Below are positions 18,740 through 21,208 of a stretch of DNA of 64,000 nucleotides, in pieces. The first letter of the stretch is position 1, and each line of letters starts with the position of its first letter. Both the position numbers and the translations under genes were made by a program. The notes below the pieces were generated by a model that had not been told where the DNA came from, made no database searches, and saw only the letters and a list, made by a program, of their open reading frames with translations. The DNA comes from a virus (taxonomy: Duplodnaviria; Heunggongvirae; Uroviricota; Caudoviricetes): IMG/VR virus record IMGVR_UViG_2778261164_000001, positions 1 through 64,000 of that record; one strand, written 5' to 3'.

Positions 18740-21000
18740 AAGAGCTGTGCTATGGATCTGTTTGCAGTGGAATTGAAGCCGCGAGTATTGCCTGGGAACC
18801 GTTGGGTATGCGTCCGGTGTGGTTTGCTGAAATCGAGTCTTTTCCATCTGCCGTTCTTGCGCACCGCTGGCCCCATGTCGCCAACCTTGGCGACATGACA
18901 AAACTTGCCAAAAAAGTCCTGGCTGGGGAAATCGAATCCCCTGATGTGCTCGTCGGGGGTACGCCTTGTCAGGCATTCAGTATCGCGGGCTTACGTGGTG
19001 GGCTTGATGATGAACGCGGCGCGCTAACTTTGAAGTATGTGGAGCTTGCAAATGCAATTGACGACAAACGGTCTGAGTCCTTCCTCAAACCGACAGTTAT
19101 CGTCTGGGAAAATGTCCCAGGAGTCCTGTCATCGGCAGATAACGCCTTCGGATGTTTCCTTGCCGGATTGGCTGGAGAAGATGCGCCATTTGAACCAGGT
19201 GATCGACCTGAATCAGGAAAAAGTAACGCGTTCTGGCGGTGGGATGGCAAAACCGGTTGCCATGCTCCAAAGTGGCCGCAGTGTGGTTGTATTTATGGAC
19301 CGCAGCGAAAGGTGGCCTGGAGAATCCTTGATGCCCAATACTTCGGAGTGGCACAACGACGCCGACGCGTGTTTGTTGTCGCAAGTGCTCGAACAGACCT
19401 CGATCCCGCAACGGTACTTTTTGAGTTCAAAGGCGTGCGCCGGAATATTGCGCCGAGCCGAAAAAAGAAGGAAATCGCTTCCGCCATTATTGCAAATGGC
19501 GCTGCAATCAGTGGCGAAAGCCTAAATCCATGCCTACACGCTGACATGCCACCCGGTATGAAATCGACGAAAGCCGTAAACGCTTTCAGGATGGCAGCAT
19601 TTGGGGAATATATTGACGATGAAACCGCATCGACAGTAAAGGCAAGAGATTTTAAAGATGCCACTGACCTTGCCGTTTTTAGCAGCACAGGAGCAGGTTT
19701 TTGGTCAGAAGGGCATGGTACATTGCGGGCACGTGAGCAAGAAAGCCATGAGCATCTTGTTACATTGGCTTTTCCTGAGCGTATGAGCGGTACACAACAT
19801 GCTGCAACTAAGAATACTTCACCATCTCTAATGGCTAAAAATCCAACAGCTGTTTGCTATGAAGTAAGAAACGCAGAAGTAGCTGTCCGCCGTCTTACCC
19901 CTGTCGAATGTGAAAGGCTGCAAGGTTTTCCTGATGGGCATACGTTGATCCCGACGGAAAAGCGTAAAAAAGTTAATTCAGATGAACTGGCATATCTTCG
20001 CAATCACTATCCAGATTTAAGCGAAGAAGAGGCCGCGATGCTTGCAGCTGACGGACCGCGTTACAAAGCGATCGGCAATAGTATGGCAATACCAGTAATG
20101 CGCTGGATTGGCGATCGGATTACTAAGTCCGTATGTCGGCAGAAAGAAGGAAGTGAAACAAAAGAGCGAAAAGTTAAACCAGCGGCAGAATTCGAACGGT
20201 CCATATTCAAATGGGCTGGTGGAAAATTTGGTGTTCTGGAACAAATCTTTCGCTATTTGCCAGAAGGGAAGCGCCTGATTGAACCTTTCGTTGGTGGCGG
20301 AGCTGTCTTCATGAATGCCGGATACCAGGAAAATCTGCTAAATGATGTGAATGCTGACCTGATTAACTTTTACAAGACTCTGCAACGCGAGGCGCATTCA
20401 CTTATCACTCTGGCACATCGTTTCTTCCAGGACTACAACACACAGGAAGGATACCTGGCAGTACGGAATGCGTTTAACAAACAAGTCTATGATGATTTAC
20501 ATCGCGCAGCGGCGTTTTTGTTCCTGAACCGACATTGTTTTAACGGATTGACGCGTTACAACCAGGCCGGTGAGTTCAATGTCGGTTATGGGAAGTATAA
20601 AACTCCGTATTTCCCATTACAGGAGATGGAAGCCTTCCTCGGTGCGGAAGGGCGGTCTGAGTTTGTATGCGGTGATTTTGCAGCGGTGATTGAAGCTGCC
20701 GGAGAAGGAGATGTCATCTTTTGCGATCCGCCGTATGAACCGCTTCCAAATACAGAGGGATTCACGAACTATTCCGGTCATGACTTTAAGTTTGAAGAGC
20801 AAAAACGCCTGGTGTCTCTGTTGACGGATGCTCATCGTCGAGGTGCAAAGGTTCTCATTACTAACAGTGGCGCGCCAAACATCAGAGAGCTTTATCATGA
20901 CAGTGGCTTCAGAGTGGAACCTCTTTTTGCCAGACGTTCTGTGTCTTGTAAGGGGGACACTCGAGGTGTAGCTCATGACGTTTTGGGTATATTGCTCTAA
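18736..21000 (+). CDS. dmt: bifunctional DNA methyltransferase (Dcm-like C5 domain fused to Dam-like N6A domain)
   Basis: 754 aa; GTG start overlapping hrdC stop; N-terminal PCQ and ENV motifs, C-terminal DPPY motif. Confidence 0.85.
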
Positions 21001-21007
21001 TAAATTT
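20991..21007 (+). promoter_or_regulatory. C1 operator (exact ATTGCTCTAATAAATTT) overlapping dmt stop codon, with promoter-like TTGCTC-17-TAATAT
   Basis: Perfect consensus 17-mer; the embedded hexamers have sigma-70 spacing. Confidence 0.65.
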
Positions 21008-21181
21008 ATTAGTGTAATATCGCCTCAATGAATCGTGATTTATAGAGCGATTTAGCTGTTAGCCGCGACAGGCGCGGCGGTAAGCATGGCTGGGCCTAGT
21101 CCTCCCAGACAAACCACCGAGTTGCCAGGTTGACCATGCGCCTAAGTGGCAACTCCGAAGTGCGTTACGAGCTTCCAGTTT

Positions 21182-21208
21182 GCCCATCTTCGGGTGGGCG
21201 TTTTTTTT
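21182..21208 (+). terminator. rho-independent terminator (GCCCATC-TTCG-GGTGGGC followed by T8)
   Basis: Perfect GC-rich hairpin plus T-run about 190 nt downstream of the operator-promoter. Confidence 0.65.

Follow-up and report, generated by a model that had tools for sequence, protein, structure and literature searches.

A conserved, pseudoknotted RNA domain is common to the leader of the C1-repressed ban operon of P1-type phage-plasmids and to the locus of the small RNA (sRNA) DicF, and the P1 leader is built as a chain of conserved RNA modules; both findings are new here. The locus was analysed in a 64,000-nt stretch of viral DNA (IMG/VR record IMGVR_UViG_2778261164_000001, positions 1 to 64,000; hereafter the window, to which all coordinates refer unless a contig is named). 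As judged by homology it is the 5′ end of the ban operon, i.e. the control region plus the first ~180 nt, with positions 20900-21700 being 99.4% identical to phage P1 (AF234172, 68576-69374), 95.7% to P7 and 94.9% to SJ46. The locus itself is already known and not new, since it is annotated in the P1 record AF234172, which lists at the homologous place the end of dmt, the promoters P2ban and P1ban and the bivalent C1 operator Obanab (formerly Op72ab), then a misc_feature 'dicF-like region' (68791-68892, about 21115-21218 in the window), and after it the transfer RNA (tRNA) genes tRNA-Asn and tRNA-Thr, plp/upl on the opposite strand, tciABC, tRNA-Ile and ban. In the region of that record shown, 'dicF-like' is a similarity label only, and RNA structure, terminator and transcript are unannotated; a literature search found no publication on a P1 leader RNA.

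The 127-nt conserved element (Table 1) is, on the evidence of compensatory base changes, a multi-helix RNA with a pseudoknot that joins a hairpin loop to an internal loop. Its helices were derived from RNAalifold and manual inspection. In a MAFFT alignment of 22 non-redundant sequences, standard pairs filled 92% of the pair cells, versus 31-52% with slid partners, and double changes occurred in 10 pairs; in a model-guided alignment of 69 distinct sequences, standard pairs filled 96% of the pair cells, versus 31-54% with slid partners, and double changes occurred in 10 pairs and 50 cells, versus 8.6 in shuffles, the sequences used for covariation being close relatives and the 69-sequence alignment being fitted to the covariance model. 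The compensatory changes comprise U-A to C-G in P2a (five sequences), U-A to C-G (three) or to U-G (three) in the pseudoknot, and U-A to C-G (nine) and G-C to A-U (two) in P3; about 45 positions of the element are invariant. Support for the outer helix P0 is good in the lambdoid copies (GUUGUGGC/GCCACAAC, with the variants UA, UG and CG), but the helix could not be fixed in the P1-type copies. Compared with AF234172, the window copy has a better paired P3 (CAACTCCG versus CAACGCCG) and a terminal tract of U8 versus U6.

The GC-rich inverted repeats that an earlier note on this DNA had pointed out are present, at 21063-67/21073-77 and 21120-27/21147-54, and the folding and covariance analysis it had suggested as a check gave a divided answer: covariation backs the structure across the 69 distinct sequences, but the fold energy is unexceptional, the minimum free energy of 21028-21212 being −65 kcal/mol with z = −1.46, and 16 of 200 shuffles (8%) fold as well. 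Folding energy was therefore rejected as evidence of structure, and it is covariation that provides this evidence. At E ≤ 10, neither the element in the window nor its Qin homologue has an overlapping match to any Rfam 15 family. That the stretch instead encodes a small protein is scarcely credible. A 54-aa open reading frame (ORF) does lie on the minus strand at 21059-21223, and some phage records annotate a coding sequence ('hypothetical protein') over the homologous region, but 1- and 2-nt indels inside the element distinguish close homologues from one another, which rules out these minus-strand proteins, and the substitutions are compensatory in RNA helices and not codon-patterned. The same indels bear out the earlier view that the stretch has no credible ORF.

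To map its distribution, 21022-21215 was compared by sensitive BLAST with 5426 complete E. coli genomes; full-length matches were obtained in 476 genomes, with 508 matching places on plasmids, and chromosomal matches of the 95-nt core (21063-21157), at 75-79% identity, in 4415 of the 5426 (~81%; median 2 copies). Qin-type prophages of a K-12-like strain and of O157:H7 carry the core in the interval from ydfC to dicB, with its end 24 nt ahead of the Rfam DicF match, and in lambdoid prophages the element is located 20-35 nt upstream of DicF. The core also occurs in 61 phage records, among them the P1 group, mEp460, Evi, Tritos, 2H10, cdtI, Stx2c phages and Salmonella F1055, and in at least 120 IMG/VR contigs, which gave the 69 distinct sequences, sampling being thin in taxa beyond Escherichia and Salmonella phages. 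A pattern scan of genome contigs for GGCGCGGCGG N35-60 GGTTGACCAT, a pattern that is too GC-rich, was rejected as a source of further members: nearly all of the fetched loci were chance matches in high-GC genomes, and only those of E. albertii and E. ruysiae were real.

The element is closely associated with DicF. Among 22 phage records with canonical DicF, 20 are also element-matching records; the element is followed directly by DicF or a DicF-like hairpin in all six loci inspected; and a hairpin with a U-run is found 36-93 nt downstream of P3 in 69 of the 69 distinct variants. This 3′ hairpin is a canonical DicF, a diverged DicF-like one or, in the P1-type copies, GCCCAUC-UUCG-GGUGGGC, and it varies far more than the element, only one (L155) of the divergent variants scanned with Rfam reaching the DicF gathering score. 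Set beside the Qin-type lambdoid dicBF operon with its dicF locus (DicF, RF00039), the P1 leader has a homologous upstream pseudoknotted element with the same helices, and the same order of element, short linker and hairpin with U-run inside a repressor-controlled operon that continues downstream; its sRNA part, however, has no homology to that of Qin, its linker is shorter, and its module follows the transcription start by about 25 nt, where that of Qin comes after ydfABC. A stretch resembling STnc100 follows in both, below the Rfam threshold of 47 bits (window 22641-22761, upstream of tciA, 37.8 bits; Qin contig L002 4185-4325, upstream of dicB, 34.1 bits), and with it the synteny of P1 and Qin extends over the element, the sRNA or terminator, an STnc100-like leader and a cell-division inhibitor.

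Upstream of the element lie the C1 operator and P1ban. The perfect 17-mer that the earlier note had placed over the dmt stop codon is exact at 20991-21007, the dmt ORF ending at 21000 with its TAA (20998-21000) inside half-site a; the inverted partner had been missed, and as this 2-mismatch copy at 21002-21018 on the minus strand overlaps half-site a, the operator is bivalent. Operator-like sites with at most three mismatches number 15 in the window, versus 0.27 expected by chance. The −35 hexamer lies inside half-site a and the −10 hexamer overlaps half-site b, the same layout as in the annotated P1 and P7 features. To call this promoter near-ideal was an overstatement, because its hexamers match the consensus at only 3/6 (−35) and 4/6 (−10) positions, and P1ban itself was not called by a consensus promoter scan; its transcription start, formerly put near 21015, is predicted at A21027/21028, about 12 nt further downstream. 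According to the P1 record, from whose annotation the repression of P1ban by C1 is also taken, P1ban is the known promoter of the ban operon and hence is not dedicated to a leader RNA.

Table 1. Annotated and predicted features of the ban-operon leader, in window coordinates
Feature	Position	Strand	Details
C1 operator half-site Oban-a (old Op72a)	20991-21007	+	exact 17-mer consensus ATTGCTCTAATAAATTT, 0 mismatches; P1 annotation at homologous place
C1 operator half-site Oban-b (old Op72b)	21002-21018	-	2 mismatches
Sigma-70 promoter P1ban	20992-21020	+	-35 TTGCTC 20992-20997, 17-nt spacer, -10 TAATAT 21015-21020; annotated in AF234172
Conserved 'DicF-upstream' RNA element	21049-21175 (127 nt)	+	covariance model R1: 104.3 bits, E = 2e-35
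Outer helix P0, P1-type copies	AGCU 21054-57/21170-73 or GCUG 21055-58/CAGU 21175-78	+	ambiguous
Helix P1	21063-67/21073-77	+	CCGCG/CGCGG
Helix P2a	21078-81/21116-19	+	CGGY/RCCG; encloses internal loop and hairpin P2b
6-bp pseudoknot	GCAUGG 21084-89 with CCAUGC 21134-39	+	P2 internal loop (GYAUGG) to P3 loop (CCAURC)
Hairpin P2b	21090-94/21104-08	+	
Long hairpin P3	21120-27/21147-54	+	AGTTGCCA/TGGCAACT; extension 21128-30/21140-42
Linker, mostly single-stranded	21155-21181	+	CCGAAGUGCGUUACGAGCUUCCAGUUU; place by alignment with Qin
Intrinsic terminator	21182-21208	+	GCCCATC-TTCG-GGTGGGC 21182-21199 (7-8-bp stem, UUCG loop), G, T8 21201-21208
tmRNA-like module	21209-21405	+	directly after terminator; unannotated
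5′ motif of tmRNA-like module	21209-21	+	CAGGGUUUUCGUC
Tag frame GCA...GCC	21270-99, UAA 21300-02	+	ANDDLMMVAA*, 10 codons
Hairpin S1	21316-21/21333-38	+	after stop codon
Pseudoknot S2	21327-30/21347-50	+	
Hairpin S3	21360-66/21381-87	+	conserved loop GUGAUUAAUAA
3′ motif of tmRNA-like module	21390-21405	+	CACAACAGGUAAGGGC

Downstream of the element, the textbook terminator described before was found as such (hairpin alone, −11.3 kcal/mol) and is kept in P1, P7, D6, E. albertii and pNCYU plasmids (six P1-type sequences). By position, 21155-21208 corresponds to the DicF spacer plus DicF, and the linker occupies the place of the RNase E-cleaved spacer and the 5′ part of DicF, which makes it a candidate processing site or seed. 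At the dicF locus, termination and RNase E processing release the sRNA from a repressor-controlled operon, RNase E making its 5′ end and either Rho-independent termination (53-nt form) or RNase III acting on read-through RNA (72-nt form) its 3′ end (PMC5069750). By analogy, once C1 is off the bivalent operator Op72ab, the overlapping P1ban would be free and transcription would begin at about 21027; some transcripts would stop at the terminator, as at dicF, and give a discrete leader RNA of ~180 nt ending at 21208. If the A/U-containing linker were then cleaved, as RNase E does at dicF, an RNA of ~45-55 nt with the hairpin and a U-tail of the Hfq-binding type could remain, which would correspond to DicF in position but not in sequence. 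Other polymerases would read through into a tmRNA-like RNA (see below), tRNA genes, tciABC and ban, and the conserved domain would be part of the same module, with setting the ratio of termination to read-through, or defining and stabilising processed ends, as its candidate jobs. Release of sRNAs from the 3′ end of structured-RNA precursors is known from the 3′ETS-leuZ type, which the P1 arrangement resembles in its structured RNA, single-stranded cleavage region and short RNA ending at the operon's intrinsic terminator; it differs in that the P1 upstream domain is no tRNA, neither ARAGORN nor the Rfam tRNA model calling one.

That P1 on derepression makes such a terminated or processed DicF-style leader RNA, with part of the polymerases reading through, is the most likely of the explanations considered, although in our judgement the odds on it are about even. 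The reading is reasonable because the stretch shares its architecture with the DicF locus by homology. Between P1ban and ban no promoter on the same strand is annotated in the P1 record, and the consensus scan of 20500-24500 found none; the tmRNA-like RNA, tRNAs, tciABC and ban therefore appear to need read-through of the terminator. Several points weigh on the other side. The consensus scan is insensitive, having missed P1ban, so a downstream promoter is possible. The DicF model RF00039 (threshold 48 bits) has no match in the window even at E ≤ 10, compared with 77 bits for the positive controls L002 and L003. In a crude RNAduplex test the P1 3′ fragment was no more complementary to the ftsZ start region than shuffles were (z = +1.2), but genuine DicF failed this test too (z = −0.9), so it lacks power. 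Further, the terminator and all that follows it are retained in phage D6 without the element, a clean indel of about 115-120 nt relative to plasmid pNCYU-26-73-5, and because of this the P1-type hairpin may belong with the downstream tmRNA-like module and not with the element. The earlier proposal of a repressor-controlled small RNA made on induction is thus partly supported: the C1-gated promoter, the structured non-coding stretch and the terminator were retained, but the promoter is not a dedicated one and the 3′ part is not DicF by Rfam.

As side observations on the D6 type, D6 carries a different multi-helix junction ~210 nt upstream of the terminator (contig L257 1186-1292), with the same outer helix GUUGCGG/CGCUGCAAC and a weak model score of 6.2 bits, and a comparably weak match (7.3 bits) lies upstream of the true element in pNCYU-26-73-5 (L006 889-1001). 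A 16-bp perfect hairpin, AAGAAAGAAGCCGACU...AGUCGGCUUCUUUCUU, is located just before the D6 terminator.

The constant placement of the element before an internal terminator, its elaborate fold and the lack of a detected N-like protein make a termination modulator an attractive rival, which we consider possible though clearly less probable than the DicF-style leader RNA. The domain would then be a cis-acting antiterminator like put of phage HK022, whose nascent RNA acts on RNA polymerase or a host factor, so that the polymerase passes the hairpin-U8 and later terminators and the short terminated RNA is a by-product. The put RNAs suppress termination in a factor-independent manner through the zinc-binding domain of the RNA polymerase β′ subunit. 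In line with such a role, the element always lies directly before a strong intrinsic terminator inside an operon whose downstream genes are needed (dicB, kil and exo in lambdoids; tRNAs and ban in P1); in lambdoid phages it belongs to the early-left operon and follows the repressor gene, and in phage 2H10 an ORF-free stretch of about 285 nt separates it from a TTGACA-16-CATAAT promoter upstream. Pfam detected no N-like protein among the early-operon proteins tested, the element sequence is more conserved than the sRNA part, and the pseudoknotted fold exceeds the needs of a processing signal. Like putL and putR, the element is a cis-encoded structured RNA of early phage operons, placed ahead of terminators in phages that lack a recognisable N protein.

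Membership of the put family itself was rejected, model R1 having no match in the HK022 putL and putR regions at E ≤ 10. The put RNAs are ~70 nt long with two stems (PMC9378689), compared with ~110-125 nt and 4-5 helices plus a pseudoknot for the element, and they occur in both early operons, unlike the element, of which the complete 2H10 genome holds a single copy and the early-right operon none. Also at odds with an antiterminator are the same terminator standing without the element in D6 and the lack, on inspection by eye, of any conserved alternative pairing of the element with the terminator stem. A bolder form of the idea would make the 127-nt domain a new class of cis-acting phage RNA, acting on polymerase or a host factor, that chooses between a short regulatory RNA and read-through at the terminator; in P1 it would control passage from the C1-regulated promoter into an 'RNA operon' (the tmRNA-like RNA and tRNAs, then the ban helicase gene), and in the lambdoid prophages of most E. 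coli strains it would determine the ratio of DicF to DicB, a proposal that we hold somewhat more doubtful still.

A structured, highly conserved core beside an intrinsic terminator is also the classic layout of a transcriptional riboswitch, and a ligand-sensing aptamer could in principle control the adjacent terminator. We regard this as very improbable: the element has no match among the Rfam riboswitch families, its spacing from the terminator ranges from 36 to 93 nt, terminator sequences are unrelated between the types, and a classical riboswitch is further disfavoured because no conserved, co-varying antiterminator pairing was seen by eye. Somewhat better placed, yet unlikely, is the view that the element is a mere stability or processing domain, either capping the upstream cleavage product with a structured 3′ end or marking a boundary by which RNase E is positioned, with the hairpin-U8 serving as attenuator or insulator of the ban operon and no trans-acting P1 sRNA being made. 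The P1 linker and hairpin are indeed short and not DicF-like, seed-like sequences are not conserved among the P1-type copies (pNCYU differs), and the D6 hairpin stands alone; but a conserved four-helix fold with a pseudoknot and so many invariant positions is more than one would expect a simple boundary to require, and the U8 tail with the U-rich stretch before the hairpin resembles the 3′ ends of Hfq-binding sRNAs, of which both are typical.

Two further features were observed in lambdoid leaders. In some IMG/VR lambdoid contigs (L216 1171-1359 and L184 4732-4920), genes for IsrK and the C4 antisense RNA, both above the Rfam thresholds, follow within about 300 nt of the element-hairpin module, so some lambdoid early-left leaders are dense regulatory-RNA clusters. 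In 2H10-type phages (L008 1655-1760), a boxA-like CGCUCUUUUUACAA and a ~15-bp long-range helix ACAAAACAGAGAAGA/UCUUCUCUGUUUUGU occur as additional conserved leader structure after the DicF-like terminator and before the first ORF.

The next module of the P1 leader resembles transfer-messenger RNA (tmRNA) and begins directly after the terminator. The 465 nt from the terminator to tRNA-Asn show 93% mean column identity among P1, P7, D6, E. albertii and pNCYU plasmids, and the ~180 nt at 21212-21391 match 328 phage records of unrelated groups, including Ackermannviridae, N4-like Gamaleyavirus, Drexlerviridae, Akiravirus, P22-like HK620 and an Aeromonas phage; the module was also found in about 60 IMG/VR loci. 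Six fetched copies (L258-L263) are all intergenic with no overlapping annotation, two of them adjoining tRNA genes. Each copy has a 10-codon frame that starts with AND or ANE and ends in LMAA, MVAA, LAVA or LAAA, such as ANDDLMMVAA, ANDDLMMAAA, ANDNAFLMAA, ANDDVVLMAA, ANDDLMLMAA, ANDDVILMAA, ANEEMYLAVA and ANDEQFLAVA, and the copies differ by synonymous codon changes. In the window the tag region reads UAAAU GCA AAC GAU GAU CUG AUG AUG GUA GCG GCC UAA (21262-21302), with the resume context UAAAU/GCA AAC GA. Across the family, hairpin S1 after the stop codon co-varies (eight versions), as do the pseudoknot S2 from the S1 loop to a downstream strand (GUCG/CGAC, CCGA/UCGG, CCAG/CUGG, CCAA/UUGG and CUAG/CUAG) and hairpin S3 with its conserved loop.

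The likeness to tmRNA lies in the resume-codon context, the 10-codon tag running from AND to hydrophobic residues and AA or VA, and the pseudoknot after the stop codon; the 5′ motif resembles the 5′ end of E. coli tmRNA. The module differs in that its conserved part is only ~190 nt, that the Rfam permuted and beta-proteobacterial tmRNA models give sub-threshold matches centred on 21262-21302 (26.1 bits versus a threshold of 47), and that ARAGORN reports the tag only at lowered thresholds (-ps80) and at default settings finds no tRNA-like domain in the window or in 106 related loci. Because no canonical tRNA-like domain was found in these, the module is called tmRNA-like and not a demonstrated tmRNA. 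A low-threshold permuted-tmRNA call of ARAGORN at 21078-21600 was rejected as to its tRNA-like domain, since its 5′ strand CGGUAAG belongs to the P2a/pseudoknot region of the DicF-type element, which co-varies with other partners, and D6 lacks that region yet keeps the tag module. Also rejected were a T-arm...CCA near the PD38 copy, which stands in a cluster of tRNA-like sequences and is most likely a tRNA gene uncalled by ARAGORN, and 8-codon matches of the 'ANEQANET' type from a second viral scan, which look like the antisense of a protein gene. The literature search found no publication on a phage tmRNA-like RNA.

Around this module, RNAalifold on six P1-type leaders predicted a ~19-bp long-range helix between 21212-21233 and 21570-21590 (GGUUUUCGUCAUGGUUAGCG/CGCUAAUCACGCUGGAAGCC), which would close a ~370-nt domain with the tag region; its sequences are nearly invariant and show no covariation. 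The motif (G)CACAACAGGUAAGRGC occurs after the last hairpin of the module (21390-21405) and again right after the 3′ CCA of tRNA-Thr (21828-21843), is common to unrelated phages (Akira L261, HK620 L262 and several IMG/VR loci), and may be a processing or trailer signal. Further downstream, a fourth tRNA gene was found at 22445-22531 (tRNA-Ser, anticodon UGA), present in D6 too and unannotated in the P1 reference region shown, so that the window represents a variant of P1 with one additional tRNA.

DicF belongs to the earliest known bacterial sRNAs, and the most conserved sequence at its locus is not DicF but the structured domain in front of it, which is without an Rfam 15 match, is carried by ~81% of the complete E. 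coli genomes and recurs in P1. Whether this domain serves termination control or sRNA maturation is a question for which P1 offers a clean test bed: a thermo-inducible C1 repressor is available, the promoter lies only ~25 nt before the domain, and there is a single strong terminator. The ban-operon leader, 650 nt that had seemed 'empty', is recast as a string of conserved RNA modules, and a tmRNA-like, tag-encoding RNA in hundreds of unrelated enterobacterial phages raises the question of whether phages interfere with, or replace, ribosome rescue by the host.

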